A stretch of 63,261 nucleotides of DNA from Thermoanaerobaculia bacterium (lineage in GTDB: Bacteria; Acidobacteriota; Thermoanaerobaculia; Multivoradales; UBA5704): contig DASZHY010000090.1 in assembly GCA_035949675.1 (NCBI GenBank), positions 1 to 63,261 on the forward strand, read 5' to 3'. The translations under genes were made by a program, and so were the position numbers. Of the stretch, positions 19,777 through 63,261 are shown in pieces. A model generated the notes under the pieces. The model ran no database searches, had not been told where the DNA came from, and worked only from the letters and a program-made list of their open reading frames with translations. Position 1 is the first letter of the stretch. Every line of letters begins with the position of its first letter.

Positions 19777-19792
19777 TGGCACAGGCCGTGGA
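19777..19792 (+). promoter_or_regulatory. Weak sigma54-like promoter candidate (TGGCAC-aggcc-GTGGA)
   Basis: The -24 element TGGCAC is perfect, but the -12 element is GTGG instead of TTGC (the conserved GC is absent). It lies ~80 nt upstream of the GTG at 19860 and directly downstream of a sigma54 activator gene. Confidence 0.2.
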
Positions 19793-19859
19793 ACATGAGC
19801 CCATGCGGCCCACGCGGAGGCGGACAGCCTTCGACAGCTCGACCCAAGGAGGGAACCTG

Positions 19860-23198: not shown

Positions 23199-23220
23199 AG
23201 CCCGCCATGGGAAGGAGCCA

Positions 23221-26968: not shown

Positions 26969-27979
26969 CTAGGCCTCGCCGGCGTAGGCAGGCTCCTCGG
27001 CCCAGAGATGCTCGACGTCCCCGAGGTGCTCCGCGACCCAGCGGTTGGAGTAGATCGTGTCGAGATAGCGCTCCCCGCGGTCAGGGAGGATCACCGCGCA
27101 GACCGCGCCGCGCTGGATCTCGGGCTGCAGCTTGGTCACGGCCATGACCACTCCGCCCGCCGAGCCGCCGGCGAGGATGGCCTCGCGCGCCACCAGGCGC
27201 CGGCAGCCGACCACGCAGTCGAGATTGCTGACGTGCACGCAGCGGTCGATCAGCGACCCGTCGAGCAGCGGCGGCTTCATCGCCGCGCCGAGGCCGGGAA
27301 CCAGGCGCGGACCCTTGACGTCGCCGAAGATCAGGCTGCCCGCGAGATCGACGGCGACGACGCGGGTCTTCATCCCACGCTCGCGCAGGTAGCTGGCGCA
27401 GCCGGCGATCGTGCCGCAGGTGCTGACGGCGACGAACAGGAAATCCATGGGGGCCGGCAGCTGGGCCACCAGCTCCTGCACGGTGGCGCGGTAGTGCGCC
27501 GCGGGATTGTGGCGGTTCTGATATTGATTGGGCCAGAACGCGCCCGGGATCGCCCGCACCAGCTCCTGGACGCGGTTCAGCCTCGCCTGCAGCAGCTCGC
27601 CGCTCTCCGGGTCGGGCTCCATGACGCACTCGATCTCGGCGCCGTAGGCGCGCAGCACCTCCACGTTCTGGCTGGTCGTCTTGGCGTCGACGACGCAGAT
27701 GAAGCGCAGGCCGTGGTAGCCGCACACCTGGGCCAGGCCGATGCCCATGTTGCCTGAGCTCGATTCGACGACCACCGCGCCCGGCCCGATCCGTCCCTCG
27801 CGCAGCGCCTGCTCGACGATCAACCGCGCCGGCCGGTCCTTGATGCTGCCGCCCGGATTGAGCATCTCGAGCTTGGCGAACACGGTGAAGCCGGCGCCGT
27901 CGAAGAGCTTGCGCAGCGGCACCACCGGCGTCTCGCCGATGACCGAGAGGATGGAGTCATGCACCTTCGCACCGGCCAC
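26969..27979 (-). CDS. SbnA-like PLP-dependent enzyme (cysteine synthase/beta-replacement family); last gene of the NRPS operon
   Basis: Motifs are 'SILSVIGETPVVPLRKLF', 'KLEMLNPGGSIKDRPA' (PLP Lys), 'ESSSGNMGIGLA' and 'VSTCGTIAG'. The GTG start overlaps the upstream stop. The tracked ORF extension to 28795 is read-through. Confidence 0.8.
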   Translation of the reverse strand: MAGAKVHDSILSVIGETPVVPLRKLFDGAGFTVFAKLEMLNPGGSIKDRPARLIVEQALREGRIGPGAVVVESSSGNMGIGLAQVCGYHGLRFICVVDAKTTSQNVEVLRAYGAEIECVMEPDPESGELLQARLNRVQELVRAIPGAFWPNQYQNRHNPAAHYRATVQELVAQLPAPMDFLFVAVSTCGTIAGCASYLRERGMKTRVVAVDLAGSLIFGDVKGPRLVPGLGAAMKPPLLDGSLIDRCVHVSNLDCVVGCRRLVAREAILAGGSAGGVVMAVTKLQPEIQRGAVCAVILPDRGERYLDTIYSNRWVAEHLGDVEHLWAEEPAYAGEA

Positions 27980-28953: not shown

Positions 28954-28994
28954 CGCACGTCCTTTCGTCCGACCGCCGCCTGGCCCGGGCGCTC

Positions 28995-30650
28995 TCAATC
29001 CCGGATGCGGAGCGAAATCACGTCGACCGGGGTGCAGGTGTCGCTGGCGATCCGGCCGTCCTCCAGCTTGACGATCCGATCGCAAGCGTCGTAATAGCGG
29101 TCGTCGTGAGTGACCACGATCGCGGTCTTGCCGCGCGCCTTGAGCGCCGGCAGCAGCTGGTGGTAGAAGATCTCCTTGAACACCGGATCCTGGTCCGCGG
29201 CCCACTCGTCGAAGACGTAGATCGGCCGGTCCTCGAGGAAGGCGGTGAGCAGCGCCAGCCGCTTGCGCTGCCCCTGCGACAGCTCGGTCGTCGAGAGCCT
29301 GCCCTCCTCCACCCGCACCTTGTGCTGCAGGTGCAGCGCGGCGAGGTAAGCGCGCGCCTCGGCATCGAGCTCCGGCCGCTCGAGCCCGAGCAGGTTCTGG
29401 AAGAGGTGGAAATCCGAGAACACCACCGCGAAATTCTGCCGGTAGGCGTCGCGACCCTCCTCGTTCACCGCCTTGCCGTCGAGCCGGATCGCGCCGAGGT
29501 CGGGCTGGTACAGGCCGACCAGCAGCTTCACCAGCGTCGTCTTGCCGCTGCCGTTGGCGCCCACCAGGAACACCAGCTCCCCCGGCACCAGCGCGAGATC
29601 GATCGGTCCCAGGACGAAGTCCATGTCGTCGCGCTCGCGCCGGTAGGTATGGGTGATGCCGGAGAGCTCCAGCCGCCGCCACGACCGCCGCGGCGGCACC
29701 TCGAGATCGCGCACCGCGTCGAGTGTGTCTCCCGACAGATCGACTCCCAGCCTTTCCACCCGGTTGAGACCGATGTTGCCGCGGCTGAAGACCGGCGCCG
29801 AGGTGAGGATGAAGCTGATCGGGTTGATCAAGAACAGCAGGGTCAAGGTGTAGCCGACGACCACCGAGCGGTCGACGCCGCCGGCGCCGGGCATGCCGAA
29901 CAGCAGCCAGCCGATGACGGCGAAGAGCACCAGCTGTCCCCAGTTGGCGGCGTAGGTGTAGATCCGTATCGCCGTCTCGTTGGCCTGCCGGAAATCCGCG
30001 GCGGTGGCAACCAGCTCGCGGGAGAAGAACGCCTCCCGCCGCCGTGCGTGCATCTTCAGCTCCTTGACGCCGTCGGTCAGCGCCCGCAGGTGTCGGTAGA
30101 GCTCGTCGTGCAGGTTGCGCGCTTTGCGGACGAAGGCCATGGCGCGTATCGCCGGCAGCTGGTAGCCGGCGCAGCCGACCGCCACGAACGCCAGGACCAC
30201 GGCCAGGCTGCGCCACGACAGCAGCCCGAGAAAGATCAGGCCGCCCAGCGTGATGGCGGCGCTGACGCAGATTCCGGGGACCAGGGCGACCGCGTTGCCG
30301 ACGCTCGCGACGTCCTCGCTGAGCACCGCCAGCAGGCGGTGCGCTCCCAGCTCCTCGAGCCGCCGCAAGGGCACCGACAGCAGGCGGCGGCTGAGCTCGC
30401 CGCGCAGCCGCAGGATGGTCCCCTGCCCGAGATGGGCGAGCAGCAGCTCGGAGGCGATGCGGCTGGCCGGCACCAGCAGGCAGACCCCCACGAACGTCCA
30501 CAGCCGCGCGGCGGGCGGGACCTTGCCGGTGAGCAGCGAGCTGACCACCGCCAGCAGCACGGCGCTGCTGGCGCCGCTGATCGCACCCGCGGCGATGGCC
30601 AGCCCGGCCGTGCCCTTCGAGAAGCGGAGCAGGAACTTGATGATTTTCAT
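28995..30650 (-). CDS. Cyclic-peptide-type ABC exporter (SyrD/PvdE-like fused permease-ATPase)
   Basis: There are six N-terminal TM helices. Walker A is 'GANGSGKTTLVKLL', the signature is 'LSQGQRKRLALL' and Walker B is 'IYVFDEWAADQD'. Confidence 0.9.
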   Translation of the reverse strand: MKIIKFLLRFSKGTAGLAIAAGAISGASSAVLLAVVSSLLTGKVPPAARLWTFVGVCLLVPASRIASELLLAHLGQGTILRLRGELSRRLLSVPLRRLEELGAHRLLAVLSEDVASVGNAVALVPGICVSAAITLGGLIFLGLLSWRSLAVVLAFVAVGCAGYQLPAIRAMAFVRKARNLHDELYRHLRALTDGVKELKMHARRREAFFSRELVATAADFRQANETAIRIYTYAANWGQLVLFAVIGWLLFGMPGAGGVDRSVVVGYTLTLLFLINPISFILTSAPVFSRGNIGLNRVERLGVDLSGDTLDAVRDLEVPPRRSWRRLELSGITHTYRRERDDMDFVLGPIDLALVPGELVFLVGANGSGKTTLVKLLVGLYQPDLGAIRLDGKAVNEEGRDAYRQNFAVVFSDFHLFQNLLGLERPELDAEARAYLAALHLQHKVRVEEGRLSTTELSQGQRKRLALLTAFLEDRPIYVFDEWAADQDPVFKEIFYHQLLPALKARGKTAIVVTHDDRYYDACDRIVKLEDGRIASDTCTPVDVISLRIRD

Positions 30651-30694
30651 CTCATGGCCTTTCTTGGGTGAGCGGCGAAATCCAGGTGCTCCGG

Positions 30695-32050
30695 TCAGCT
30701 TTCTCCGATCACCTCGGCAGGCGCCGGAGCGGGGACCTCGTCGAGCGCGGCGGCGATCGTGTCCAGCCCGTGCCGCAGCCCGTCCTCGTCGATGGTCAGC
30801 GGCGGCATCACCTTGAGCACCTCGTCCCGCGGCCCGGCGGTCTCGATCACCAGGCCGCGGGCGAAGGCGGCCCGCGCCACCGCCGTGGCCATTCCCGGCG
30901 CCGGCAGCTGAAGGCCGAGGATGAGGCCGCGGCCGCGCACCGCCGCCCCGAGGCCGGGGCGGGCCGCCGCGATCTCCTGCAGGCGGCGCATTGCCAGCTT
31001 CGACTTGCGCTGCACCTCCCGGCAGAAACCGTCGTCCCGCCAGTAGAGCTCGAGCGCCGCGGTGGCGGCGACGAACGCGAGGTTGTTGCCGCGGAAGGTG
31101 CCGGTGTGCTCCCCCGGGCGCCAGGCGTCCAGCTCGGGCTTGATCAGCAGCAGCGCCATCGGCATGCCGAAGGCGCCGATCGATTTGGAGAGGCAGACGA
31201 GGTCGGGCTCCAGGCCCGCCTCCTCGAAGCTGAAGAACCTGCCGGAGCGCCCGCAGCCGAGCTGGATGTCGTCGACGATGAGCAAGGCATCGGCGGCGCG
31301 CACCAGCGCCGCCAGGCGCCGCAGCCAGTCGCGGCTCGCGACGTTGACGCCGCCCTCGGCCTGCACGGTCTCGACGATCACCGCCGCCGGCTGGTCGAGG
31401 CCGCTGCTGGGATCGTCGAGCAGCGCCGCGAGCTGCGCCAGCGAGTCGCCGCGTCCCGCCGGATGGCCGTCGAAGGGCACCACCGTGGCATGGGCAAGGG
31501 GCACGCCGGCGGCGAGCCGCTTGGACCTGCTGCCGGTCACCGCCAGGGCGCCAAGCGAGAGGCCATGGTAGGAGTTGGTGAAATGGATGACCTCGGTGCG
31601 GCGCTTGACCTTGCGCGCCAGCTTGAGCGCCGCCTCGACCGCGTTGGCGCCGGTGGGACCCGTGAACTGAACCTTGTACTGAAGTCCCCGCGGCCTCAGG
31701 ATCAGCTCCTCGAAGCGCTCGAGGAACTCCCGCTTGGCGGCCGTGTACATGTCCAGCGAGTGGGTGACGCCGTCGCGCTCCAGGTACTCGATCAGCCGCC
31801 GTTTGATGAGCGGGTGGTTGTGGCCGTAGTTGAGCGAGCCGGCGCCGCTGACGAAATCGACGTACTCGCGCCCCGTCTCGTCGATCAGCCGGTAGCCGCG
31901 GGCCGCGACGAAGACCACCGGGAACGACCGGCAGTAGATACGGACCTCCGATTCCAGCCGCTCGAAGGTTGCCGTGCCGGCTGCCGGCGCGTCTTTCCCG
32001 GACGGCCGGCGGGTGGCAACCGCGCCGGCGGCGACTCCCCCGCCGCTCAC
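30695..32050 (-). CDS. Diaminobutyrate--2-oxoglutarate transaminase (EctB/PvdH-type)
   Basis: Motifs are 'FERLESEVRIYCRSFPVVFVAARGYRLIDETGREYVDFVSGAGSLNYGHNHP' and 'DDIQLGCGRSGRFFSFE...CLSKSIG' (PLP Lys). The GTG start forms a GTGA overlap with the upstream stop. Confidence 0.85.
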   Translation of the reverse strand: MSGGGVAAGAVATRRPSGKDAPAAGTATFERLESEVRIYCRSFPVVFVAARGYRLIDETGREYVDFVSGAGSLNYGHNHPLIKRRLIEYLERDGVTHSLDMYTAAKREFLERFEELILRPRGLQYKVQFTGPTGANAVEAALKLARKVKRRTEVIHFTNSYHGLSLGALAVTGSRSKRLAAGVPLAHATVVPFDGHPAGRGDSLAQLAALLDDPSSGLDQPAAVIVETVQAEGGVNVASRDWLRRLAALVRAADALLIVDDIQLGCGRSGRFFSFEEAGLEPDLVCLSKSIGAFGMPMALLLIKPELDAWRPGEHTGTFRGNNLAFVAATAALELYWRDDGFCREVQRKSKLAMRRLQEIAAARPGLGAAVRGRGLILGLQLPAPGMATAVARAAFARGLVIETAGPRDEVLKVMPPLTIDEDGLRHGLDTIAAALDEVPAPAPAEVIGES

Positions 32051-33108
32051 AGCGAGAGCTCCCGGCCGTCCACCGGCTCCGTCATGCCGACCCGGAGCCG
32101 CCGTTCGCCGCTGTAGGGGGTGCGCGCGTGCGCCACCGCCATGTTGTCGAGCAGCAGCACGTCGCCGCGCTGCCAGGGAAATGCCACCAGCTCCTGGCGA
32201 TAGGCCGCCCGGACCGCCTCGAGATCGGCGAGCGGGATCGGCGCGCCGTCGCCGAAGGTGGCGTTGCGCGGCAGATCCTCCTCGCCGAAGACCTCGAGCA
32301 GCGCCTCGCGGACGTCCGGCGCCAGGCTCGAGTAATGGAACAGGTGCGCCTGGTTGAACCACAGCGGACGGCCGGTCCGTGGGTGCACGGCGGTGGCCTG
32401 GCAGACCTGGCGGGTGCGCAGGCGCCCATCCTGCCGCCACTCGAATTCGATGCCCGCATGCCGGCAGAATTCTTCGACCGCGCCCCGGTCGTCGGTCAGG
32501 AAGACCTGCTCCCACGGCAGGTCGGCGCCGCCGCCGTAGTTGCGCACGTAGGCCACGCCCTTGGCCGCGAAGCGGGCGCGGACGTCCGGCGCGATGCGCT
32601 CGTGGACGCGGTGACTGTCGGCGATCGGGGTCATGCCGCCCTCGGCCGCCGGCAGCTCGCAGAAGAAGAAGAGCTTCATCGGCCAGATCGCGGCATACGA
32701 GTTCTCGTTGTGCGGCGGGATCTCCTCGCTCGCCGGGTACTCGGTCGAGGTGTAGATCCCCGCGCCTACTTCGGAGCGGGGGGTGGAGCGATAGCGGTAC
32801 TCGAGCAGGTCTCCCGAGAGCGCTTGGATGAAGCGCGAAAACGTCTCGACGCCGTCGAAGCCGAAGCCGCGGAACAGGATGGCCCCGTGGCGCAGCAGCA
32901 AGTCGCCGATCGCCGTCCGCTGTTCGGCGGCGCAGGCGACCGGATCGGCGCCGGGGGAGGCGGGCCGCGCCAGCAGCGGCAGGTCGGTTCCCGGCCGCAG
33001 CGGCTGGGTGACGATGGCATTCGGGCGCGGCAGGCGCACGCCGCGGCGCTCGACGCGGCCGATCGGTGCCGCGGCGGGCACCGGCGTTGGCGTTTCATCT
33101 CGGGTCAT
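32047..33108 (-). CDS. TauD/TfdA-family Fe(II)/2-oxoglutarate dioxygenase (SyrP-like putative beta-hydroxylase), copy 1
   Basis: Motifs are 'GAGIYTSTEYPASEEIPPHNENSY' (HxE) and 'PWQRGDVLLLDNMAVAHARTPY'. The ATG forms an ATGA overlap with the NRPS-4 stop. Confidence 0.85.
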   Translation of the reverse strand: MTRDETPTPVPAAAPIGRVERRGVRLPRPNAIVTQPLRPGTDLPLLARPASPGADPVACAAEQRTAIGDLLLRHGAILFRGFGFDGVETFSRFIQALSGDLLEYRYRSTPRSEVGAGIYTSTEYPASEEIPPHNENSYAAIWPMKLFFFCELPAAEGGMTPIADSHRVHERIAPDVRARFAAKGVAYVRNYGGGADLPWEQVFLTDDRGAVEEFCRHAGIEFEWRQDGRLRTRQVCQATAVHPRTGRPLWFNQAHLFHYSSLAPDVREALLEVFGEEDLPRNATFGDGAPIPLADLEAVRAAYRQELVAFPWQRGDVLLLDNMAVAHARTPYSGERRLRVGMTEPVDGRELSL

Positions 33109-40544: not shown

Positions 40545-40548
40545 TGAA

Positions 40549-47958: not shown

Positions 47959-51299
<3,341 letters not shown>

Positions 51300-51339
51300 C
51301 GTCGTCCTCCAGCGGGGTTGGTCCGCGGTCAGCCTCCGG

Positions 51340-54300: not shown

Positions 54301-57300
54301 TTCCATCGGCACGTAGGCGGCCCCCGCCGCGAGCACCGCGAGCATCGCCGCCACCAGCTGCTCGGAGCGCTCGCAGACCACGCCCACGTTCTCGCCCGGC
54401 GCGACGCCCGCGGCCAGCAGGCGGCGCGCCAGGCGGTTCGCCTGCGCCGCGAGCTCGCCGTAGCCGAGCGTCCGCCCGCCGCACAGGACGGCCGGCGCCT
54501 CTGGCCGGCGCGCCGCCTGCTCGGCGAAGCCGGCGTGCAGCAGCCGCGGCGGGCGCGGGCGGGCGGTCGAGTTGAAGACGCGGACGAGCTCGTCGCGCTC
54601 GCCCGCCGCGAGCAGCATCTCGCTGCCGAGCGGGGCCTCGGGCCGGTGCGCCAGGGCGTCCAGGATCCGCAGGTACAGGCCCAGCGCCTGCTCGACGTCG
54701 CCGGGCGTGAAGTGGCGCGGCGAGAACTTGATCCGCACCTCGAGGACGTCCAGGGTCGTCGAGACCTCCAGGTCGAGCAGCGTGTTGGTCATCTCGTTGC
54801 CGCGCACGGCCGACGGCCCGTCCTGCGCCGGGTCGGCCGATGGCTGGACCAGCGGCCGGAAGAGCACGTTCTCCCCCATCTCCGTGAGCAGATGGAAGTC
54901 CATGAAGTTGAACAGGACGTCGAAGATCGGGTTCTCGGCCGTGCCTCGCCCTTCGGCCAGCGCCGCAATGTCCACCAGCGGGATGTCGTGCTCGCGGCTG
55001 GCCATCAGGTAGCTGCCCACGCGCCCGGCCAGCGCCGCGCCGCTCTCGCCGGCACGCATCCGCATGCGCACCGGAACCGAGTTGAGGAAGCAGCCGAGGA
55101 TCCGGTCGCCGTCCGGCAGCCCCGGCCGGTCGTGCGAGACGACGCCGGTGACGACGTCCAGCTCCCCGGTCAAGACATGGAGGAGATGGACGTGGGCCGC
55201 CAGGCAAAGCGCCTTGAGCGGAACGTGGAGCTCGGCGGCCCGGGCGCGGAGCGCCGCGAGCAGGCCCGCTTGCGGCCGGACCTCGCGCATGTCCATGCCG
55301 CCTGCCTCGCCGGCGATCCGCGAGCGCTGGAAGGGCAGGCGGTTGCGCTCGTGACCGGCCAGGGTCTCGCGCCAGAACGCCTCCGTTGCCGCGGACCGCT
55401 CGCGTCCTAAAGTGATCGCCAGGTGGTCCTTGTAGGTGCTGGCGAGCGGCGCGAGGGCGGTGATCGCCGCGAGGTCCGGCCGCGCGCAGAGGTCGTTGAG
55501 CTCCAGCCAGAGCGCCATGTTGCTCCAGCCGTCGAGCATGGCGTGATGGACGGTGAACGCCACGCACCACAGCCCGCCTCCCAGGCGGAACAGCTTCAGC
55601 CGCCAGAGCGGCCCGCCCTCGAAGCTGAAGCGGTGGCCAAGATCCTCGGCGCAGTGGCGCTCGATCCGCTGCCGCTGTGCCGCCCCGGGCAGGTCGCCCA
55701 AGTCCTCGACGTCGCGCTGCAGCGGCAGGGCCGCATGCACGACCTTGAGCGGCTCGGCGAAGCCGTAGAGGTGGTAGGTGCTGCGCAGGATCGGGTGGCG
55801 GCCGGCGGCGAGCTCGAAGGCGCGCCAGAACGTGTCGACGTCGGGGATGGAGAGCGGATGGACGAACTGGTCGTGATAGATGGGCTGCTCGGGCAGCAGC
55901 AGCGAGTAATAGATCATCCCCTTCTCGGTGGCGCTCAGGGGGAAGAAGTCCTCGCGGCCGGCCGGCAGCTTGGCGCGCTGCGCCGCGTCGCCGAGCACCG
56001 CGGCCTGGAAGCGCTCGATCACCGCCAGGCCGGCCGCGCGCTCCTCCTCGTGCGAGCGCCCGGCCGCCCCTCGAACCAGCTGCGCGGCCATCGCCGACAC
56101 GGTCTGGTGCTTGAAGACGTCCTGGACCCTGACCGACCTGCCCAGGCGCTCCTTGACGAGCCCGGCCAGCCGCACCGCCTGCATCGAGTCGCCGCCCAGA
56201 TCGAAGAAGTTGTCCTCCGCCCCGACGCGCTCGGCCCCCAGCAGCTCGGCCCAAACCTCGGCCAGCTGCCGCTCGAGGCCGGTCGGCGGCGGCGCCTCCG
56301 GCTCCCCGCCCTCGCCTGGCGTCGACCCGGGAGGCATGGCGGGCGTGGCGGGCGCGCCGATTGCCGCGCCTGCCGCGCCCTCCGCGGGCGCCGCGGGCAG
56401 CGCCTCGCGGTCCACCTTGCCGTGGGCGGTCAGCGGCAGCCGCTCGAGCAGCACGAAAGCCGACGGCACCATGGGCTCGGGCTGTCGCTCACGCAGGAAC
56501 TGACGTAGCGCCGGCGCCGTCAGCCCCGGGCGGACCGGCACCACGTAGGCGACCAGCCGCCGCCCCCCTCCCGGCTGCGGCCGCACCACCACCACCGCTT
56601 CGGCAACGCCCGGATGCGCCTCGAGCTCCGCCTCGATCTCGCCCAGCTCGATGCGGAAACCCCGGACCTTGACCTGATGGTCGATGCGGCCCAGGTGCTC
56701 GAGGTCGCCGTCCTCCCGGTAGCGCACCAGGTCGCCCGAGCGGTACAGCCGCGCGCCGGGACGCTCGCCGGACGGATCGGGGACGAACCGTGCCGCGGTC
56801 AGCTCCGGCCGGTCGAGATAGCCGCGCGCCACCCCCGCGCCGCCGACGCACAGCTCTCCCGCCACGCCGATCCCGACCGGCTGCTGCCGGCGATCGAGCA
56901 CCCGCAGCTCGAGGTCGGGGATCGCCACGCCGATCGGGCTCCCGGGCCTTTCCAGATCGGCCGGCGCGATGGGCCGATAGGTGACGTGGACCGTCGTCTC
57001 GGTGATCCCGTACATGTTGACCAGGCGCGGGCGCTCTGCCGAACGGTCGTTCCACCACCGGCGCAAGCCGCCGAGCTCCAGGGCCTCGCCGCCGAAGACC
57101 ACCAGGCGCAACGCGGCGAACCGCCGGGCGCCGGCGGCGGTGACCAGCTGGCCGAAAGCCGACGGCGTCTGGCTGAGCACCGTCGCCTGCTCCTGCTGCA
57201 AGAGGTCGCAGAACGCCTCGGGCGAGCGGCTGATCCAGTACGGCACGACGACCAGGCGGCCGCCGTACAGCAGCGCCCCCCAGATCTCCCAGACCGAGAA

Positions 57301-60300
57301 ATCGAAGGCACAGGAGTGGAACAGCGTCCAGACGTCGTGCTCGTCGAAGTCGAACCAGCTCCGGGTGGCCGCGAACAGGCGCACCGCGTTGCGCTGCTCG
57401 ACCAGCACGCCCTTGGGCCGCCCCGTCGAGCCGGAGGTGTAGATCACGTAGGCCAGGTTGCCGGCCAGGTTGCCGGCCAGGTTTCCGGGCAACGCCCGGG
57501 CCGGGGACGGCGCCGGGCCGCTCGTCCAGGTCTCGGCGGCGTCGAGCAGCAGCAGCCGCGGCCGGTCCTGGGCCAGCTGCTCGAAGCCCGGGGCGAAGCG
57601 GCGCTCGGTGAGCAGGATCGGCGCCCTGCTGTCGGCGAGGATGAAGGCCTGGCGCTCGCGCGGGTAGTCGGGATCGATCGGCACGTAGGCGCCGCCCGCC
57701 GCGAGCACGCCGAGAACCGCCACCACCAGCTCCGCGCTCCGCCCGACGCACAGCGCCACCGGCACCTCGGGCCCGACCCCCAGGGCGCGCAGGCGCCCGC
57801 CCAGCGCGGCGGAGCGCCGCTCGAGGCCGCCGTAGCTGAGGCACTCCTGCCCCGAGCTCACGGCCACCGCCTCCGGACGGCGCCGCGCCGCGGCCGCGAA
57901 CAGCTCATAGAGGCCGAGCTCGCTCGCCTGGCTCTCCCGCGCGGCGTTCCACTCCCACAGCAGCTGGTGGCGCTCGGCGGCCGAGAGCCACGGCAGCTGC
58001 GACAGCCGCACCGCGGGGTTCGCCGCGGCGGCCAGCAGCAGCTCGCGGAAGTGTCCCTGGAAGCGGCGTATCGCCGCGGCATCGAACAGGTCGCGGTCGT
58101 ACTCCCAGACGCCGTCCAGGCCGGCGGCGGTTCGCGTCAAGGCGACCGTCAGGTCGAACTTGGTGCTGTCCACCGGGACGTCGAGCGGCGTGAGGCGCAG
58201 CCCCGGCAGCTCCAGGGCGCCGCCTGCCGGCTCCTGCAGCGTCAGGACCACCTGGAACAGCGGCGAGTGCGCGAGGCTCCGCTCCGTCTGCAGCTCGTCG
58301 ACCAGCTTCTCGAAAGGCAGGTCCTGGTCGGCGAACGCCTCGAGGGTGACCTGCCGCACCCGCCCCAGCAGCTCGCGGAAGCTCGGGTCGCCGGAGACGT
58401 CGGCCCGCAGCACCACCATGTTGACGAAGAAGCCGATCAGGTCTTCGGTCTCCAGGCGGTTGCGGCCCGCCACCGGCGCTCCGACCACCATGTCCTCCTG
58501 GCCGGCGAGCCGCGACAGCAGGGCCATGAAACCGGACAGCAGCACCATGAAGAGCGTCGCGCCGCCTTCACGCTGCGGGCGGGCGAGCGCGAGGGCGCTG
58601 TCGCCGGGCAGCGCAAACGGCAGCTGTGCGCCGCGCAACCGCCGCACCGGCGGCCGCGGCCGGCAGAGCGGCAGGCCGAGCACCGCGGGCGCTCCCTGCA
58701 GGCGCGCCCGCCAGGTCTGGAGCTGCGGCGCGAGACGGTCGCCGTCGAGCCACCGGCGCTGCCAGGCGGCAAAATCGGCATATTGCATCGGCAGCGGCGG
58801 CAGGGGCGACGGGCGCCGTGTGCTCGCGGCGCCGTAGAGGGCGGCCAGCTCGCGCGTCAGGATCTCGACCGACCAGCCGTCGAAGACGATGTGGTGCAGG
58901 TTGAGCAGCAAGACGTGCTCCTGCCCCGACAGCCGCAGCAGGCAGGTGCGCACCAGGGGCCCGCGCGCGAGATCGAACGGCCGCTGCGCCGCCGCGGCGC
59001 CGAGGCGGCGCACCAGGGCAGCGCGCCCGGGCAAGGGCACTCTGCCCAGATCGACCAGCGGCAGGGCCCGGGCGGCGAGCGCCGCGACCCGCGGCAGCGG
59101 CTCCGTCTCGCCCGCCACCTCGACGAAGGTCGTCCGCAGCACGTCATGGCGCGCCATGACCTCGCCCAGGGCGGCGGCAAGCGCCGCTCGGTCGAGATCG
59201 CCGGCCAGCTCGAGCGCCGCCGGAATGTTGTAGGCCGGGCTCTCGACGTCGAGCTGGTGGAGGAACCAGAGGCGCCGCTGCGCGAAGGAGAGGACCGGGC
59301 GCTCCGTCCGTAGGAGGGCCCGGATCGGCGCCGCCTCGACCCGGCCGCCCGCCGCCAGCCGCGCCTCGACGGCGGCAGCCAGCCCACGGATCGTGGGCGA
59401 GGCGAACACCGTCTCGACCGCCAGCCCGGCGCCCAGGGCCTTGCGGATGCGGGAGACGAGCTGCACCGCGAGGAGGGAATGGCCGCCCAGCGAGAAAAAG
59501 TCGTCGTCGATCCCGGGCGCCTGCGGGCCGAGCAGCTGTGCCCAGAGCCCGGCCATCACCACCTCGACCCGGGTGCGGGGCGCCGCGATCGGCGCCATGG
59601 GCGCCGTGCGCGCCGCGGCGCCGGCGAGCGCGCCCAGCGCCCGCCGGTCCAGCTTGCCGTGGCCGCTCAGCGGCAGGGCGTCGAGAGGGATGAACGCCGC
59701 GGGCACCATGTAGGCCGGCAGCTTCTCCTCCACGAACCGGCGCAGGCTGGCGGCATCCACCTCGCCGGTGGCGAAGGCGACCAGGCGGAGATCGGCACCC
59801 TGGCCCTGGGCCACGACGGCGGCCTCGCGCACCGCGGGATGTCCGGCCAGCACCGCCTCGACTTCCCCCGGCTCGATCCGGAATCCCCGGATCTTGACCT
59901 GGTCGTCGCCGCGGCCCAGGAACTCGGCCTCGCCATCGGGCCGCAGGCGCACCCGATCCCCGGTGTGGTACAGGCGTTCTCCCGGCGATTCTCCGAACGG
60001 GTCCGGCACGAAGCGCTCGGCGGTGAGGTCCGGCCGGCCCAGGTAGCCCCGCGACACCCCCGGTCCCCCCACGTAGAGCTCGCCCGGCGCCCAGCGCGGC
60101 ACCGGCTGCTGCCGCGCGTCGAGCAGGTAGAGCCGGGCGTTGGCGATCGGACGCCCGATCGGCACCGGTCCGGCGCTCGGCTCGCCGTCCTTCACCAGGT
60201 GCGCGCAGCAGCCCACGACCGTCTCCGTCGGACCGTATTCGTTGACCACGCGCAGCCCCGGCGCCCGGCGCCGCCACCACTCCACCAGCTCGCCCTCGAG

Positions 60301-63261
60301 CACCTCGCCGCCCACGACCATGAGTCCGCTGCGCTCCGACAGGTCGGTCTCGGCGAGCACCTCCTGAAGCGCCGCGAGGTGCGACGGCGTCAGCTTGAAC
60401 AGGTTGCAGCCGCCGGCGCGCAGCGCCCCGGCGAGCGCCTCCACCCCGCGCTCCTCGGGCAGCAGCTCCACCCTGCCGCCGCTCACCAGGGGCACGAGCA
60501 GAGTCGTCACCGTCAGGTCGAAGCCGAACGGCGAGGACACGGCAGCGGCGCTCCCCTCGTCGACGCCGAAGGCCGCGGCCGCACAGCGCAAGAGGTTCAC
60601 CAACCCGCGGTGCGGCACCATCACACCCTTGGGCATGCCCGTCGAGCCCGAGGTGTAGAGCACGTAGGCGAGGTTGTCGGCCGACGCCGGCTGCCCCGGC
60701 GCCTCCTGTTCCCCTGGCTCCAATCGGGGAGCGCCGTCATCGCACCCGAAGTCCAGCTCGAAGACCGGCACCCCGTGCGCCGCCGGCAGCCGCGGCCGCA
60801 GCTCCCGCCGGGTGAGCAGCGCCCCGGGCCGCGCGTGCTCGATCACGGACGCCAGCCGTGCCGGCGGATGCGCGGGATCGAGCGGCAGGTAGGCGCCGCC
60901 GGCCGCAACCACCGCCAGCAGCCCCAACACCATCTCCGGCGAACGCTCGACGCAGAGCCCCACCACCACCTCCGGCCCGACCCCCGCCCGGCGCAACCGC
61001 CGCGCCCAGCGCCGGACCCGCGCCGCCAGCTCGCCGTAGGTGACGGCCTGCCCGGCGCAGGTCACGGCGACGGCGTGCGGCGTCCGTGCCGCCTGGGCGG
61101 CAAACAGCTCGGCCAGGGTGGCCGTCCGCGGCCAATCCCGCGCCGCCATCGCGTTCCACTCCACCAGCAGCTGCTGCCGCTCGACCGGGCGAAGCAGCGG
61201 CAGCTCCGCGAGCCGTTCGCCGGGCGCTTCGGCCACGGCGGCGAGCAGCGTGCGGAAGCTCGCGGCCAGGAGGTCCACGGTGGCAGCGTCGAACAGGTCG
61301 CGGTCGTACACGATCGTCGCCCCGAGGTCGCTCGCGGTCTCCTCGACGAACAGCGTGAGGTCGAACTTTGCGGGGTCGCTCGCCACCGGCAGCCGGCTGA
61401 AGGTGAGCCCGCCCAACCGCCGACCCTCGCCGCTGTCGCCGATGCCCGGGGACGCGTGCTGCAGGACGAACATGACCTGGAAGAGCGGCGCGTGCGCTCG
61501 GCTCCGGGCCGGCGCCAGCTGCTCCACCACCTTCTCGAAAGGAACTTCCTGGTGGGCCAGGGCGGCGAGCGCCGTCTCCCGCACCTGCGCCAGCAGATCC
61601 ACGAACGCGTGGTCCGGGCGCAGCCTGGCGCGCAGCACCAGGGTGTTGACGAAGCACCCGATCAGGGCCTCGATCTCGGGGTGGTTGCGGCCCGCGACGG
61701 GCGTGCCGACGCTCGACTCCGGCTGGCCGGAGCAGCGCATCAGCAAGGCCTGGAAGCCGGCCAGGAGGGTCATGAACAGCGTCGCGTCCTGCCGGCGGCC
61801 GAGCGCCCGCAGCTCGCCCGCCAGGGCCGCCGGCAGCCGCAGCTCACGGCTGCCTCCCCGGTGGCGCTGCACCGCCGGACGCGGGCGGTCCGTGGGCAGC
61901 TCGAGCAGCGGCGGCGCCGATGCCAGCTGCTCGAGCCAGTAAGCCATCTCCCGCTCGAGCGCCTCGCCTCGAAGCCACTGGCGCTGCCACCATGCGAAAT
62001 CCGCGTACTGCACCGGCAGCGGCGGCAGCGGCGGCAGCGACTGCAGCGACTGCAGGCGACGCGGCCCGACGGCCGCCCGCATCGCGTAGTGCGCAGCCAG
62101 CTCACGGATCAGCACGCCCGCCGACCAGCCGTCGAACACGATGTGGTGCACGGTCAGGACCAGCCGGTGGTCGTCATCCGCGAGGCGCAGGAGCAGGGTG
62201 CGAGCGAGCGGTCCGCGCTCGAGGTCGAAGGGCTGGCCGGAGTCCAGGCCGGCGACGCGGCGCGCCTCGCTCTCGCGGCCGGCCGCGGGAAGGCCCCGCA
62301 GATCGAGGTCCGGCAGCGGCCATGGCCGCGGCGGCGCGATCCTTTGCACCGGCTCGCCCGGGAACGCGCCGCCAGGCTCCGGGGGAGCGCCAAAGGTGGT
62401 GCGCAGCACCTCGTGCCGCGCCAGGACCTCGTCGAAGGCGGCGCCGAGCGCTGCCCGGTCCAGCAGTCCCTGCAGGCGCACCAGGGCAGGGACGTTGTAG
62501 ACCGGGGTTCCCGGCTCGAGCTGGGCGATGAACCACAGCCGCAGCTGCGCGAAGGAGAGCGGGAGCGGCAGGTCGCGGCCCACCGGCCGTATCGGCGGCG
62601 GGGCCGCGGTGCCGCGGCGCACCTCGGCCGCCACGCTGGCGGCCAGGGCGGCGACCGTCGGTCGCTCGAAGAGCGTGCGCACCGGCAGCGCGACGCCGAA
62701 GGACTGGCGCAGGCGCGAGACGACCTGGGTCGCCAGCAGCGAGTGGCCCCCCAGGGCGAAGAAGTTGTCCAGCGCCCCCACCGCCGGCAGGCCCAGCAGC
62801 TCCGCCCAGATGCGGGCCACGGCCTCCTCGGTGGGAGTCCGCGGCGCCACGAGATCCTCCTCCACTCCCGCCCGGTCGCGCGCCGGTTCCGGGAGGGCCG
62901 CGCGGTCCACCTTCCCATGCGCGGTGAGCGGCAGCGCTGCGAGGAGCACGACGTGCGACGGGACCATGTACTCGGGAAGCTCGTCCCTCAGGAAGTGGAA
63001 AAGCTCCGGCACCAGGCCGAGAGCCGGGCCGGAGCCGGGCACGACGTAGGCCACCAGGCGCTTGTCCGCCGTCGCCGCGGCGGCGCCCGGCGCCGCCGCG
63101 GGCTCGGCGCATGCGATCACCACCGCCTCGCCCACCGCGGGATGGCGGGCCAGCACGCTCTCGATCTCTCCCAGCTCGATGCGGAAACCGCGGACCTTCC
63201 CCTGCTGATCGATTCGCCCCAGGAACTCCAGGGCGCCGTCCGGACGGCGGCGGGCGAGGTC
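51340..63261 (-). CDS. NRPS-1, 5'-truncated by the window edge: (A-partial)-T-C-A(Asx-like)-T-C-A(Thr-like)-T-C'-A(Cys-like)-T-C
   Basis: The frame is open to nt 63261 ('DLARRRPDGALEFLGRIDQQGKVRGFRIELGEIE' is an a8 motif). The C domains have 'HHIVFDGWS' (twice), 'HHAMLDGWS' and 'HHIVADGWS'. The carriers are GGHSL, GGHSL, GGDSM and GGHSL. Specificity residues are DLTKVGEVG(K), DFWSVGMVH(K) and DLYNFSLVW(K). The protein ends in a C-A linker, 'LLDEAAAGQLITAFNEVA*'. Confidence 0.95.
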   Translation of the reverse strand, partial: DLARRRPDGALEFLGRIDQQGKVRGFRIELGEIESVLARHPAVGEAVVIACAEPAAAPGAAAATADKRLVAYVVPGSGPALGLVPELFHFLRDELPEYMVPSHVVLLAALPLTAHGKVDRAALPEPARDRAGVEEDLVAPRTPTEEAVARIWAELLGLPAVGALDNFFALGGHSLLATQVVSRLRQSFGVALPVRTLFERPTVAALAASVAAEVRRGTAAPPPIRPVGRDLPLPLSFAQLRLWFIAQLEPGTPVYNVPALVRLQGLLDRAALGAAFDEVLARHEVLRTTFGAPPEPGGAFPGEPVQRIAPPRPWPLPDLDLRGLPAAGRESEARRVAGLDSGQPFDLERGPLARTLLLRLADDDHRLVLTVHHIVFDGWSAGVLIRELAAHYAMRAAVGPRRLQSLQSLPPLPPLPVQYADFAWWQRQWLRGEALEREMAYWLEQLASAPPLLELPTDRPRPAVQRHRGGSRELRLPAALAGELRALGRRQDATLFMTLLAGFQALLMRCSGQPESSVGTPVAGRNHPEIEALIGCFVNTLVLRARLRPDHAFVDLLAQVRETALAALAHQEVPFEKVVEQLAPARSRAHAPLFQVMFVLQHASPGIGDSGEGRRLGGLTFSRLPVASDPAKFDLTLFVEETASDLGATIVYDRDLFDAATVDLLAASFRTLLAAVAEAPGERLAELPLLRPVERQQLLVEWNAMAARDWPRTATLAELFAAQAARTPHAVAVTCAGQAVTYGELAARVRRWARRLRRAGVGPEVVVGLCVERSPEMVLGLLAVVAAGGAYLPLDPAHPPARLASVIEHARPGALLTRRELRPRLPAAHGVPVFELDFGCDDGAPRLEPGEQEAPGQPASADNLAYVLYTSGSTGMPKGVMVPHRGLVNLLRCAAAAFGVDEGSAAAVSSPFGFDLTVTTLLVPLVSGGRVELLPEERGVEALAGALRAGGCNLFKLTPSHLAALQEVLAETDLSERSGLMVVGGEVLEGELVEWWRRRAPGLRVVNEYGPTETVVGCCAHLVKDGEPSAGPVPIGRPIANARLYLLDARQQPVPRWAPGELYVGGPGVSRGYLGRPDLTAERFVPDPFGESPGERLYHTGDRVRLRPDGEAEFLGRGDDQVKIRGFRIEPGEVEAVLAGHPAVREAAVVAQGQGADLRLVAFATGEVDAASLRRFVEEKLPAYMVPAAFIPLDALPLSGHGKLDRRALGALAGAAARTAPMAPIAAPRTRVEVVMAGLWAQLLGPQAPGIDDDFFSLGGHSLLAVQLVSRIRKALGAGLAVETVFASPTIRGLAAAVEARLAAGGRVEAAPIRALLRTERPVLSFAQRRLWFLHQLDVESPAYNIPAALELAGDLDRAALAAALGEVMARHDVLRTTFVEVAGETEPLPRVAALAARALPLVDLGRVPLPGRAALVRRLGAAAAQRPFDLARGPLVRTCLLRLSGQEHVLLLNLHHIVFDGWSVEILTRELAALYGAASTRRPSPLPPLPMQYADFAAWQRRWLDGDRLAPQLQTWRARLQGAPAVLGLPLCRPRPPVRRLRGAQLPFALPGDSALALARPQREGGATLFMVLLSGFMALLSRLAGQEDMVVGAPVAGRNRLETEDLIGFFVNMVVLRADVSGDPSFRELLGRVRQVTLEAFADQDLPFEKLVDELQTERSLAHSPLFQVVLTLQEPAGGALELPGLRLTPLDVPVDSTKFDLTVALTRTAAGLDGVWEYDRDLFDAAAIRRFQGHFRELLLAAAANPAVRLSQLPWLSAAERHQLLWEWNAARESQASELGLYELFAAAARRRPEAVAVSSGQECLSYGGLERRSAALGGRLRALGVGPEVPVALCVGRSAELVVAVLGVLAAGGAYVPIDPDYPRERQAFILADSRAPILLTERRFAPGFEQLAQDRPRLLLLDAAETWTSGPAPSPARALPGNLAGNLAGNLAYVIYTSGSTGRPKGVLVEQRNAVRLFAATRSWFDFDEHDVWTLFHSCAFDFSVWEIWGALLYGGRLVVVPYWISRSPEAFCDLLQQEQATVLSQTPSAFGQLVTAAGARRFAALRLVVFGGEALELGGLRRWWNDRSAERPRLVNMYGITETTVHVTYRPIAPADLERPGSPIGVAIPDLELRVLDRRQQPVGIGVAGELCVGGAGVARGYLDRPELTAARFVPDPSGERPGARLYRSGDLVRYREDGDLEHLGRIDHQVKVRGFRIELGEIEAELEAHPGVAEAVVVVRPQPGGGRRLVAYVVPVRPGLTAPALRQFLRERQPEPMVPSAFVLLERLPLTAHGKVDREALPAAPAEGAAGAAIGAPATPAMPPGSTPGEGGEPEAPPPTGLERQLAEVWAELLGAERVGAEDNFFDLGGDSMQAVRLAGLVKERLGRSVRVQDVFKHQTVSAMAAQLVRGAAGRSHEEERAAGLAVIERFQAAVLGDAAQRAKLPAGREDFFPLSATEKGMIYYSLLLPEQPIYHDQFVHPLSIPDVDTFWRAFELAAGRHPILRSTYHLYGFAEPLKVVHAALPLQRDVEDLGDLPGAAQRQRIERHCAEDLGHRFSFEGGPLWRLKLFRLGGGLWCVAFTVHHAMLDGWSNMALWLELNDLCARPDLAAITALAPLASTYKDHLAITLGRERSAATEAFWRETLAGHERNRLPFQRSRIAGEAGGMDMREVRPQAGLLAALRARAAELHVPLKALCLAAHVHLLHVLTGELDVVTGVVSHDRPGLPDGDRILGCFLNSVPVRMRMRAGESGAALAGRVGSYLMASREHDIPLVDIAALAEGRGTAENPIFDVLFNFMDFHLLTEMGENVLFRPLVQPSADPAQDGPSAVRGNEMTNTLLDLEVSTTLDVLEVRIKFSPRHFTPGDVEQALGLYLRILDALAHRPEAPLGSEMLLAAGERDELVRVFNSTARPRPPRLLHAGFAEQAARRPEAPAVLCGGRTLGYGELAAQANRLARRLLAAGVAPGENVGVVCERSEQLVAAMLAVLAAGAAYVPMEPDYPAARKAHIVRQSGVRRVLADRTYDLGGEAGEAEVEWLAPAAADLARVSGSPLPALALPSQLAYTIYTSGSTGLPKGVMIEHASAANLVDWVNEEYGIGPGQRVLMVSSVCFDLSVYDVFGALAAGAAVVVARAEEVQEPSLLWRLVAEQGVTFWNSVPSTLGLLVEYLEASAPAARCESLRLIFLSGDWIPVGLPERARRFFPHARVVGLGGATEAAVWSVYHPIEPIAAVDPTLASIPYGRPLANNTCYLLDGSLELLPPGVIGDLYIGGMGVARGYAADPAKTAAAFVPDPLAGEPGARLYRTGDLGRMLPGGELEFLGRRDHQVKVRGFRIELGEIESQLCRHPSVQEAAVTARTDRSGQKFLCAYVVAAAMPAARELKAHLERALPGYMVPDVYVGLAKLPLTANGKLDRKALPEPELANLDPASAFVAPSGEVESALAAIWEEVLGVQGVGARHDFFALGGHSLSAVQVATRIRHLLGVELPLRSLFDNPTIAGLAAAVTALRAAGAEPGARPAPAVAPLGKRPRPALLPLSFAQQRMWFLQQLNPGSTAFNLPLVLRLTGRLDAPALAASVSEICRRHESLRTTFPLIGDGPVQVIAPHRPQLLAGVDLGGLAPEQRETAARRLVDQALGRPFDLGRGPLLRTSLLRLSPTDHVAIFHLHHIVADGWSLGLLSDEIAALYAAQVERRASPLPEPPVQYADYTLWQREWLSDEALDRQLAYWRARLAGDLPVLRLPMRRQRPASPTYRGQVEAFRLDGGSSDALRRFAGREGVTTFVLLLAAWKALLRLYTGQDDLIVGTVTANRGRIELEKMIGFFVNTLVLRTDLSGDPTFRELVARVRDTAFAAYEHQDVPYERVLEDLAPQRAGASLFQVKFQLLNFDGDMRQLPGLTSSAFEYRLDTSQSDLTLTITGEQGEISGLFAYSTDLFEAAVIRRLARQFEELLACLVAEPDRRLSSLSLLDEAAAGQLITAFNEVA
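54620..55960 (-). other. Atypical condensation domain C' in NRPS-1, preceding the Cys-type A domain (approximate bounds)
   Basis: The N-terminus is 'FFPLSATEKGMIYYS' and the His motif is 'HHAMLDGWS' (not the DxxxxD of a heterocyclisation domain). The upstream carrier is 'FFDLGGDSMQAVRL'. Confidence 0.6.
57451..57486. repeat. Perfect or near-perfect 12-bp tandem triplication inside the A-domain a3 motif region of NRPS-1
   Basis: ggccaggttgcc / ggccaggttgcc / ggccaggtttcc encode 'GNLAGNLAGNLA' immediately before 'YVIYTSGSTG'. Confidence 0.9.
62024..62068. repeat. Five tandem 9-bp units (cggcagcgg x2, cggcagcga, ctgcagcga, ctgcaggcg) in a C domain of NRPS-1
   Basis: Read directly. They encode 'RLQSLQSLPPLPPLP', just upstream of the 'VQYADFAWWQ' motif. 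Confidence 0.85.

Follow-up and report, generated by a model that had tools for sequence, protein, structure and literature searches.

Predicted tailoring of carrier-bound residues in a 5'-truncated nonribosomal peptide synthetase cluster from a Thermoanaerobaculia bacterium

Contig DASZHY010000090.1 (assembly GCA_035949675.1), from an uncultured soil Thermoanaerobaculia bacterium of the phylum Acidobacteriota, was analyzed over 63,261 nt, a stretch referred to here as the window. Positions 26969-63261 are filled by nine minus-strand genes (g1 to g9; Table 1), four of which encode nonribosomal peptide synthetases (NRPSs). The region is a real, 5'-truncated NRPS cluster. Judging from its sequence, it should make a peptide with nine or more residues and extensive tailoring, and it appears to comprise the 3' two-thirds or so of that cluster, with the initiation module beyond the window. 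The nine genes probably form a single operon for a co-linear assembly line in which tailoring takes place on carrier-bound residues. The predicted chain is X0-Asn1-Thr2-Cys3-X4-Gln5-Dab6-Asn7-Asn8, where Dab is diaminobutyrate, with release by a thioesterase (TE). With tailoring included, it would become X0-Asn-Thr (to dehydrobutyrine, Dhb)-Cys-X4-(beta-OH/OMe)Gln-Dab-Asn (possibly beta-OH or dehydro)-Asn-TE. The TE would release the peptide in linear or cyclized form, and the transporter encoded by g7 would export it.

Gene Organization and Integrity

The G+C content of the window is 65-76%. Frame-specific GC3 (G+C at third codon positions) reaches 0.9-0.98, and the coding phase shifts nine times within 26969-63261, on the minus strand every time. 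Start-codon mapping, with Shine-Dalgarno-like sequences upstream, agrees with this phase analysis on nine genes, whose intergenic distances from g1 to g9 are, in order, 40, -4, 4, -4, -4, 44, 41, and -1 nt. Four of the eight junctions are overlaps of 1-4 nt, and g4/g5 is ATGA-coupled. A first-pass annotation of the same DNA had described nine minus-strand genes with gaps of 44 nt or less or with overlapping stop and start codons, and this description is borne out. It had also placed the 5' end of the cluster outside the window, as the open frame of g1 confirms.

Internal stop codons are absent across the 36 kb, and GC3 stays above 0.9 throughout. A 15.9-kb contig of an independent metagenome (JGI 3300037852), which lies inside the window range, is 99.87% identical over 15,883 nt, differing by 21 substitutions without a single indel; genes called on it break at g1/g2 and g2/g3 exactly as in the window. 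Because this independent contig keeps the gene breaks, the split modules are genuine and not assembly artefacts. In addition, the ATG of g2 is preceded by a GGAGG ribosome-binding site. At the open end, a 41-mer of the window end had no exact match in the metagenome collection, and a protein-pattern scan of metagenomes with the first 700 residues of g1 returned only generic NRPSs of up to 61% identity and no extending contig. The best match of these 700 residues is the locus L166, whose adenylation codes are unrelated.

Domain Architecture and Predicted Chain

Pfam was run module by module on g1-g4. The product of g1 begins with the C-terminal part of an adenylation (A) domain and a carrier (T) domain, followed by three condensation (C)-A-T modules and a final C domain. 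The module left incomplete by this C domain is completed by g2, which is A-T-C. g3 consists of C-A-T with an FkbM methyltransferase (PF05050) inserted into the A domain, followed by C-A-T, and g4 consists of C-A-T/C-A-T-TE. Thus, modules 0-8 contain eight complete A domains and one partial A domain (module 0), so that the earlier count of four NRPSs with at least nine A domains, eight of them complete, agrees with Pfam. Condensation, AMP-binding, AMP-binding_C, and PP-binding matches occur in all eight complete modules, and a TE closes the line, as in a modular (type I) NRPS.

Pfam detected no epimerization (E) domain in the cluster. A motif scan of all six frames found no MbtH-like open reading frame (ORF) in the cluster; no search directed at a phosphopantetheinyl transferase was made. 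Neither a regulator nor a receptor was detected among the nine cluster genes (Pfam/NCBIfam), and among the ten largest flank ORFs there was none except a sigma-54 activator about 7 kb from the cluster. The first-pass statement that the operon lacks an E domain, MbtH, receptor, and regulator therefore stands.

The nine Stachelhaus positions were read through the FDxS, TPS, GGE, and YGPTE anchors in a MAFFT alignment of the eight complete A domains. All codes given by the first-pass annotation were re-derived identically (Table 1), and an automated column read-out departed from them once, with G in place of A at position 6 of A4. The canonical codes, DFWNIGMVH for Thr, DLYNLSLIW for Cys, DAWQFGLID for Gln, and DLTKLGEVG for Asn, are matched at 7/9 positions for Thr, 9/9 for Gln, 8/9 for Asn, and 6/9 with two conservative changes for Cys. 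The A5 code equals the canonical Gln code, and Gln (or perhaps Glu) is its predicted substrate. At position 322, each of the three Asx codes has the Glu of the Asn type and not the His of the Asp type. The code DLTKVGEVG had been labeled Asx once and Asn elsewhere; the Asn-type label holds, and the inconsistency does not. The earlier residue order survives as far as the codes go, but it ignored on-line tailoring, which would alter at least residues 2 and 5 and probably 7.

The A6 code is near the DIWE(L/M)TADD of sister clusters that also carry the Dab-forming transaminase. A6 is read as Dab-type because the transaminase g6 lies in the cluster, and because DIWEMTADD and a 74%-identical transaminase co-occur in the sister cluster L244/L246. 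The pocket of A4 (Arg239, His278) suggests a substrate with an acidic or strongly polar side chain.

Putative Interface Domain and Methyltransferase Insert of Module 5, and the TauD Oxygenases

The first domain of module 5, C6*, has LPALCAD in place of HHxxxDG in the alignment, so that both histidines are gone, and its Pfam Condensation match is weak (123 bits). From this motif, C6* is predicted to have no catalytic activity. C5, which ends g2, immediately precedes it, and the two form a tandem C/C* junction. The motif is conserved in homologues, and the same junction between C and interface (I)-A(Gln) occurs in at least nine other loci (L003, L006, L007, L009, L010, L011, L018, L246, and L247). 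The arrangement found here is that of an interface module, with a His-less C-fold domain between an upstream C domain and an A domain, and with TauD partners, g5 and g8, in the same cluster. I domains are known to accompany TauD-type beta-hydroxylases that act on carrier-bound Asp or Glu (PMC10880069, PMC4357302, PMC13638107, PMC7100376).

The neighboring C5 (48090-49457, g2) has the motif HHIVSDV, with Gly replaced by Val, and its counterparts in relatives often deviate too (HHIVSDA, HHIVTDA). C domains of this kind may be a sub-type specialized for coupled hydroxylation and condensation.

The FkbM insert of A5 is about 300 aa long in the alignment. The A10 Lys and the T-domain Ser are residues 1256 and 1313 in g3 versus 1230 and 1286 in AmbE, a spacing of 57 versus 56. 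The oxygenase g5 matches Pfam TauD at 3.5e-49, is 42-54% identical to TauDs beside cassettes of I, A, and methyltransferase (MT), and matches only At3g21360 and 9yut in the PDB. g8 is 49% identical to g5, and both keep the iron ligands HxE...H. AsnO and VioC, which hydroxylate free amino acids, did not appear for either TauD among the PDB searches. By its sequence, g5 is assigned as a cassette-type TauD. In the proposed mechanism, C6* would assist in the beta-hydroxylation, by a TauD oxygenase, of the Gln (or Glu) bound to the carrier of module 5, and the embedded FkbM domain would then O-methylate that hydroxyl, yielding 3-methoxy- (or 3-hydroxy-) glutamine.

Distribution of the FkbM Insert

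A search with module 5 returned many I-A-FkbM-T proteins of 39-46% identity, most of them from metagenome-assembled genomes (MAGs) of Pyrinomonadaceae and Thermoanaerobaculia. A profile of the insert detected at least 454 related insert loci among genome representatives, mainly in Acidobacteriota, Nostoc/Scytonema, and Myxococcota; Pseudomonas aeruginosa was not among the 80 best. When codes and neighbors were read, interrupted A domains coded for Thr or Ser had no TauD, whereas those coded for Asn, Asp, Glu, or Gln had an interface-like domain directly upstream and usually an adjoining TauD. In at least 12 further loci, a TauD of the g5 type directly precedes the I-A-MT module, and most cassette relatives have a single TauD. 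This clear-cut split between codes and TauD indicates that the cassette hydroxylates and then O-methylates, and it suggests a general, portable cassette for beta-methoxy amino acids.

Several members of this family have features of their own. Comparison of the protein P0001 (L002 5844-12476) with g3 reveals how a whole domain was cleanly gained or lost in nature among closely related proteins. In L032, L035, L052, L065, and L080, the FkbM-interrupted A domain has the code SSRDLAMGI, which lacks Asp235, the binder of the alpha-amino group. Some 2.5 kb upstream there is a TauD that shares 50-54% identity with g5. These A domains may activate something other than an alpha-amino acid. P0028 and P0031 carry two tandem FkbM copies within one A domain.

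Atypical Condensation Domains

When the nine C domains were aligned, six were LCL-like (41-51% mutual identity) and three were outliers at 22-30%. Besides C6*, the outliers are C3* and C9*. The carriers directly ahead of these two have GGDSM or GGDSI motifs; in every other T domain the motif reads GGHSL or GGNSL. A dehydrating C domain works on the donor residue upstream of it, prior to condensation (PMC10880069). The donor ahead of C3* is Thr, which brings its own beta-hydroxyl; the donor ahead of C9* has an Asn-type code, and its hydroxyl depends on the predicted TauD step.

C9* retains the catalytic second His. Its best PDB match is the McyA C domain (8jbr; 2e-94, 320 bits), followed by AmbE-C2 (7r9x; 5e-52) and then PvdL (1e-38). 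These scores clearly point to a C_modAA domain of the dehydrating clade, of the McyA/AmbE-C2 type. Its orthologues, with the motif NHA(V/I)(F/L)DG, follow Thr-T(GGDS[IL]) in L002, L009, L018, and L246. C3* is 22-28% identical to the other C domains, and its PDB matches are McyA (8jbr; 6e-40) and AmbE-C2 (7r9x; 1e-38), with the DCL domain of PvdL close behind (8e-36). From these matches, C3* may be dehydrating (C_modAA-like) or a dual epimerization/condensation (E/C) domain. Its position after the Thr module fits dehydrobutyrine formation, and the arrangement Thr-T(GGDSI)-C3*-like-A(Cys) recurs in L246 and P0242.

In the proposed line, C3* would dehydrate Thr2 to dehydrobutyrine before condensation, or else epimerize it. 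The second TauD would probably make beta-hydroxy-Asn7, which C9* may dehydrate. In L247, a C3*-like domain follows an Asn-type module served by a TauD and an I domain, and this precedent makes the conversion of beta-hydroxy-Asn to dehydro-Asn on module 7 plausible. The remaining C domains of g3 and g4 are ordinary. C7 is plain LCL (best match Txo1/Txo2, 1e-107, with McyA and AmbE-C2 absent at E <= 1e-20), and C8 is also LCL.

Supply and Export Genes

The five genes after the NRPSs had been described as two TauD-like dioxygenases, a diaminobutyrate transaminase, a SyrD/PvdE-like exporter, and an SbnA-like enzyme, and Pfam and NCBIfam support each assignment. g6 scores 639 bits with PRK09264 (cut-off 438) and 618 bits with TIGR02407, both above cut-off. 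The cluster combines this EctB-type transaminase with A6, whose pocket is acidic and of the Dab type, and g6 would make L-Dab for A6. g7 scores 481 bits with TIGR01194 against a cut-off of 286.

g9 matches the SbnA equivalog TIGR03945 at 429 bits (cut-off 350). SbnA converts O-phosphoserine and glutamate to N-(1-amino-1-carboxyl-2-ethyl)-glutamic acid (ACEGA), the first step to L-2,3-diaminopropionate (Dap). g9 shares 55% identity with its counterpart in L006, an SbnA gene that is followed by an OCD/SbnB gene. For the present cluster, an SbnB gene could be located upstream, outside the window, and one of the missing upstream modules may use the SbnA product. A supply of A4 by SbnA had been considered, prompted by L006, in which SbnA and SbnB stand beside an A domain with a similar D-x-R-H pocket. 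The link was dropped when an identical A4 code was seen in L246 with no SbnA in the stretches fetched. The literature on SbnA/SbnB-fed NRPSs yielded no Dap specificity code.

Sister Clusters

The closest relatives of g8, which reach 76% identity, pointed to a syntenic sister cluster, L244 and L246, on one 123-kb contig (JGI 3300062568 Ga0599193_0000035). Its gene 1 encodes a 7071-aa NRPS ending in Thr-T(GGDSI)-C3*-like-A(Cys-type)-T-C. Gene 2 encodes a 1114-aa A-T-C protein that is 52% identical to g2 and has the same code, DARHLALMT. Gene 3 is I-A(Gln)-T-C-A(Dab)-T, and gene 4 is C-A(Thr)-T-C_modAA-...-TE. The tail consists of a diaminobutyrate transaminase (74%), a MacB-type permease, an ABC (ATP-binding cassette) exporter (72%), and a TauD (76%). 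L247 (ENA contig_25881) has the order C-TauD/I-A(Asn-type)-T(GGDSI)-C3*-like-A(Cys-type)-T-C, A(DARHLALMV)-T-C/I-A(Gln)-T. The TE of g4 is 58-63% identical to those of a further sister cluster, L002 (JGI Ga0599193_0000838), and of L244/L246. A query with module 3 returned only proteins under 2000 aa and not the 7071-aa orthologue of g1.

Across these clusters, the conserved core reads [beta-hydroxy residue]-T(GGDS[IL])-C3*-like-A(Cys)-T-C/A(DARHLALM[TV])-T-C/I-A(Gln)-T-C-A(Dab). By the same comparison, the cluster in the window is a variant that has gained the FkbM insert and a second TauD (g5), carries SbnA, and has Asn-type modules where relatives have Thr. The sister clusters, in contrast, have no FkbM insert, no g5-type TauD (L246), and no SbnA in the fetched stretches, and they have Thr instead of Asn ahead of the C_modAA domain. 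They also contain extra modules, a MacB-type permease, and HAD/3HCDH genes or luciferase-like/AsnB-like genes. In L244 (11016-12994), a HAD-type hydrolase and a 3-hydroxyacyl-CoA-dehydrogenase-like gene occupy the place of SbnA, and in L247 (15567-18577), a luciferase-like monooxygenase and an asparagine-synthase-like gene directly precede the A(DARHLALMV) gene. These small-molecule genes may be clues to the A4 substrate. The Asn-type A domain of L247 (7732-10692, 9845-15553) is broken by frameshifts, and the gene calls there are wrong; this is probably an error of long-read assembly rather than biology.

None of the sister clusters is characterized. The best relatives in protein searches are unnamed metagenome or MAG proteins of 43-76% identity, and no named or characterized homologue appeared in any protein search. 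The first-pass view that the cluster encodes something undescribed needs to be divided. The product is very probably undescribed, a judgment based on the lack of named homologues together with searches of the full-text literature. Every enzymatic device, on the other hand, is of a known kind, namely the interface domain with TauD, the A-embedded O-methyltransferase, C_modAA, EctB-type Dab supply, and SyrD-type export, and syntenic sister clusters exist.

Comparison with Known Systems

The lipodepsipeptide clusters for syringomycin and syringopeptin in Pseudomonas syringae, with SyrE, SyrP, and SyrD, are similar in having a stand-alone TauD-type hydroxylase, a SyrD-family exporter, Dab, probable Dhb, a terminal TE, and no known E domains. 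The present cluster differs in having no halogenase (SyrB2/SyrC), a different residue order, an MT-interrupted A domain, and a host from another phylum.

A parallel for module 5 is the AMB (2-amino-4-methoxy-3-butenoic acid) system, in which AmbB is A-T-C and AmbE is Q-A-MT-T1-C_modAA-T2-TE with a Q region of 461 aa (PMC4357302, PMC10880069). AmbC and AmbD, both TauD proteins, hydroxylate T1-bound Glu before O-methylation, and C_modAA directly follows T1 (PMC10880069, PMC4357302). Similarly, g2 is an A-T-C protein followed by g3, which opens with a non-catalytic C-like domain of about 455 aa. An MT-interrupted A domain and a T domain come next, two TauD oxygenases are present, and a C_modAA-clade domain occurs elsewhere in the cluster. 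In contrast to AMB, an LCL domain follows the methylated module, the code is that of Gln instead of Glu, the line has at least nine modules instead of making a tripeptide, and the exporter is of the ABC type instead of LysE. Sequence relatedness to the AMB proteins was judged only from the AmbE-C2 and AmbB-C structures. Since C7 is LCL, the dehydration and decarboxylation that lead to a vinylglycine are not expected here.

The I-domain modules of siderophore pathways and of myxoglucamide (PMC13638107) likewise have a His-less C-like domain between C and A and a clustered Fe/2-oxoglutarate (2OG) oxygenase, but they act on Asp, His, or Glu rather than a Gln-type residue. The hydroxyl here is probably O-methylated, and a siderophore context is missing. 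As for known dehydrating C domains (McyA module 2, AmbE-C2, AlbB, LgnD), C9* resembles them in its sequence match, its GGDSI carrier, and its catalytic second His, and C3* resembles Dhb-forming systems in following a Thr module. C9* differs from the known examples in following an Asn-type module, so that prior beta-hydroxylation is needed, and in having Asn in place of the first His. Beta-methoxy-asparagine is known in the literature from cystobactamids and coralmycins.

Alternative Interpretations

Several points weigh against parts of the proposed assembly line. The residue and tailoring calls are all predictions from sequence. C6* is a putative interface domain, and the I domain studied in the myxoglucamide work was dispensable in vitro (PMC13638107). 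Module 7 has no interface domain, and the cluster has two TauDs and one I domain. Moreover, the 76% orthologue of g8 is the only TauD in the fetched L244/L246 stretches, where the sole I-module is that of Gln. Module 5 could therefore be the target of both TauDs, as in AMB; otherwise, one of the two would hydroxylate the Asn of module 7, and perhaps that of 1 or 8, with no interface domain involved. P0001, a 67%-identical g3 orthologue, shares the interface domain and Gln code and has no methyltransferase insert, which makes the methylation a recent add-on. The near-equal score of C3* with the DCL domain of PvdL keeps epimerization to D-allo-Thr a live alternative. No SbnB was found in the 63-kb window by tblastn with the SbnB-like protein of L006, and A4 is probably not the user of the SbnA product, because an identical A4 code occurs in a cluster without SbnA in the stretches fetched.

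Four other readings of the locus were weighed against the carrier-bound tailoring proposed here. C3*, C9*, or both might be dual E/C domains, which would give D-allo-Thr2 and D-Asn7 and no dehydro residues; this is a rather unlikely outcome. Such activity would compensate for the lack of any E domain, and C3* scores about equally against the DCL-clade domain of PvdL. Furthermore, GGDS(I/M) carriers precede E, dual C/E, and DCL domains besides dehydrating ones, and dual C/E, DCL, and C_modAA are sister clades (PMC10880069). Yet C9* reaches 320 bits against the C domain of McyA, from the dehydrating clade, versus 136 bits for the best non-modAA domain. Domains of the C3*/C9* type follow a beta-hydroxy residue, either Thr or an Asn-type residue served by a TauD, in the annotated loci wherever the upstream A domain is readable. 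The classic dual motif, HHILLDG, is found in L006 on a C domain of a different type. It is scarcely credible that the whole cluster is a decaying or chimeric assembly product made of pseudogenes or mis-assembled pieces. The end of g1 in a C domain, the opening of g2 with an A domain, the loss of catalytic His from C6*, the HHIVSDV of C5, and the end of the window inside g1 could be taken as signs of decay. However, the uninterrupted frames with high GC3, the independent contig with identical gene breaks and no indels, and the ribosome-binding site of g2 contradict this, and sister clusters show the same C/A and C/I splits.

A peptide siderophore or metallophore, in which the TauDs make beta-hydroxy-Asp/Asn ligands as in pyoverdine-, cupriachelin-, and serobactin-type pathways, is improbable, even though a TauD with a C-like interface domain is the hallmark of beta-hydroxy-Asp siderophore modules. 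The families of g7 (SyrD/PvdE) and g6 (EctB/PvdH type) and the three Asx-type A domains would also suit it. Several features oppose it, since the interface domain stands ahead of a Gln-type and not an Asx A domain, and the Asx codes are of the Asn type (Glu322) rather than the Asp type (His). The hydroxyl of module 5 is probably capped by FkbM, destroying the ligand, and dehydrating C domains and a Cys module are atypical. A scan of the nine cluster genes and of the ten largest ORFs in the left flank (27 kb) gave no gene for a TonB-dependent receptor or for a hydroxamate, catechol, or other chelator. Very unlikely as well is a true AMB-type unit in modules 4-5, in which carrier-bound Glu would be dihydroxylated by both TauDs and its 4-OH capped by the methyltransferase, with dehydration and decarboxylation then placing an oxyvinylglycine (methoxyvinylglycine-like) warhead in the peptide. 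The A-T-C of g2, the Q-A-MT-T of g3, and the two TauD paralogues do equal AmbB, the N-terminal half of AmbE, and AmbC/AmbD. Nevertheless, the domain after T5 is an ordinary LCL in all relatives too, where AMB has C_modAA, and the A5 code is canonical Gln instead of Glu. g2 shows no particular sequence similarity to AmbB, whose structure (7x0e) lies outside the best 60 PDB matches of g2 and scores only 82 bits against C7, and most cassette relatives have a single TauD.

Neighboring Genes

The left border of the cluster is a convergent CMD-family gene, as previously annotated. Its overlap with the end of a gene for an AcrB-type pump assigns it to another transcription unit, and a terminator and promoter scan of the g9/CMD junction gave nothing. 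The plus-strand run of overlapping genes at 19788-26947 starts with a 1136-aa BNR/sortilin-repeat protein, followed by AcrB and CMD, and the pump gene has no obvious adjoining membrane-fusion protein gene. Two other ORFs have no Pfam matches, namely a 939-aa ORF on the minus strand (14495-17314) with a strong coding signature (GC3 0.85) and a putative 273-aa ORF on the plus strand (35-856). Two soil Thermoanaerobaculia MAGs encode the best matches of the flanking AcrB, at 89% and 87% identity, with the following matches at 77% or less, and the NRPS relatives are likewise mostly from Acidobacteriota. These matches narrow the Acidobacteriota-type host proposed earlier to the class level.

Table 1. 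Features of the window, with locations on the forward-strand numbering and predicted functions
Feature	Location	Strand	Description
g1	51340..63261	-	NRPS 1; 3973 aa visible; 5'-truncated, frame open to last base of window
g2	47955..51299	-	NRPS 2
g3	40549..47958	-	NRPS 3; TTG start overlapping g2 stop
g4	33105..40544	-	NRPS 4
g5	32047..33108	-	TauD/TfdA Fe(II)/2OG oxygenase
g6	30695..32050	-	Diaminobutyrate-2-oxoglutarate transaminase, EctB/PvdH type
g7	28995..30650	-	Cyclic-peptide export ABC transporter, SyrD/PvdE family
g8	27979..28953	-	Second TauD/TfdA oxygenase
g9	26969..27979	-	SbnA-family pyridoxal phosphate (PLP) enzyme
T2 carrier (g1)	56080..56268	-	GGDSM motif
C3* (g1)	54562..55971	-	Non-LCL C domain after Thr module; motif HHAMLDG
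C6* (g3 N-terminus)	46594..47958	-	Putative interface ('Q'/I)-type C-like domain
FkbM-family methyltransferase (PF05050)	44440..44994	-	Pfam 7e-17; between A8 and A10 of A5
C9* (g4)	35865..37214	-	Motif NHACIDG
Terminal TE of g4	33108..33989	-	Pfam Thioesterase 1.6e-29; GWSFGG motif
A1 (g1)			DLTKVGEVG; Asn-type
A2 (g1)			DFWSVGMVH; Thr
A3 (g1)			DLYNFSLVW; Cys-type
A4 (g2)			DARHLALMT; no substrate call
A5 (g3)			DAWQFGLID; Gln
A6 (g3)			DVWEMTADD; Dab-type
A7 (g4)			DLTKVGEVG; Asn-type
A8 (g4)			DLTKLGEVA; Asn-like
CMD-family gene	26378..26947	+	Convergent with g9; left border; overlaps AcrB gene end
AcrB-type RND (resistance-nodulation-division) pump gene	23176-26406	+	Start overlapped by BNR/sortilin-repeat protein gene

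Significance

Acidobacteriota are abundant in soil, and to our knowledge hardly any of their nonribosomal peptides have been characterized. Full-text literature searches returned no paper on Thermoanaerobaculia peptides and no occurrence of a dehydro-Asn residue or of the terms "methoxyglutamine" and "dehydroasparagine". It can tentatively be suggested, as a possibility and not as the expected outcome, that the cluster belongs to an undescribed Acidobacteriota peptide family with the core (dehydro or beta-hydroxy residue)-Cys-X4-(beta-oxygenated Gln)-Dab, in which X4 is probably acidic, and that the member found here contains both 3-methoxy-glutamine and 2,3-dehydro-asparagine. If this is true, these two residues, made by the interface domain, TauD, and FkbM and by TauD with C_modAA, respectively, would be without precedent found in the open literature.

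The understanding of NRPS function would remain unchanged by this cluster, and its value is that of a natural-product discovery lead. It offers a concrete, nearly complete template for synthesis by prediction or for heterologous expression. The AmbE-style unit of interface domain, TauD, and A-embedded FkbM would be widespread and portable rather than a Pseudomonas oddity, placing beta-methoxy groups on Asn, Asp, Glu, and Gln residues. That several uncultured lineages conserve the Cys-X4-Gln-Dab core hints that their peptides have a pharmacophore in common.

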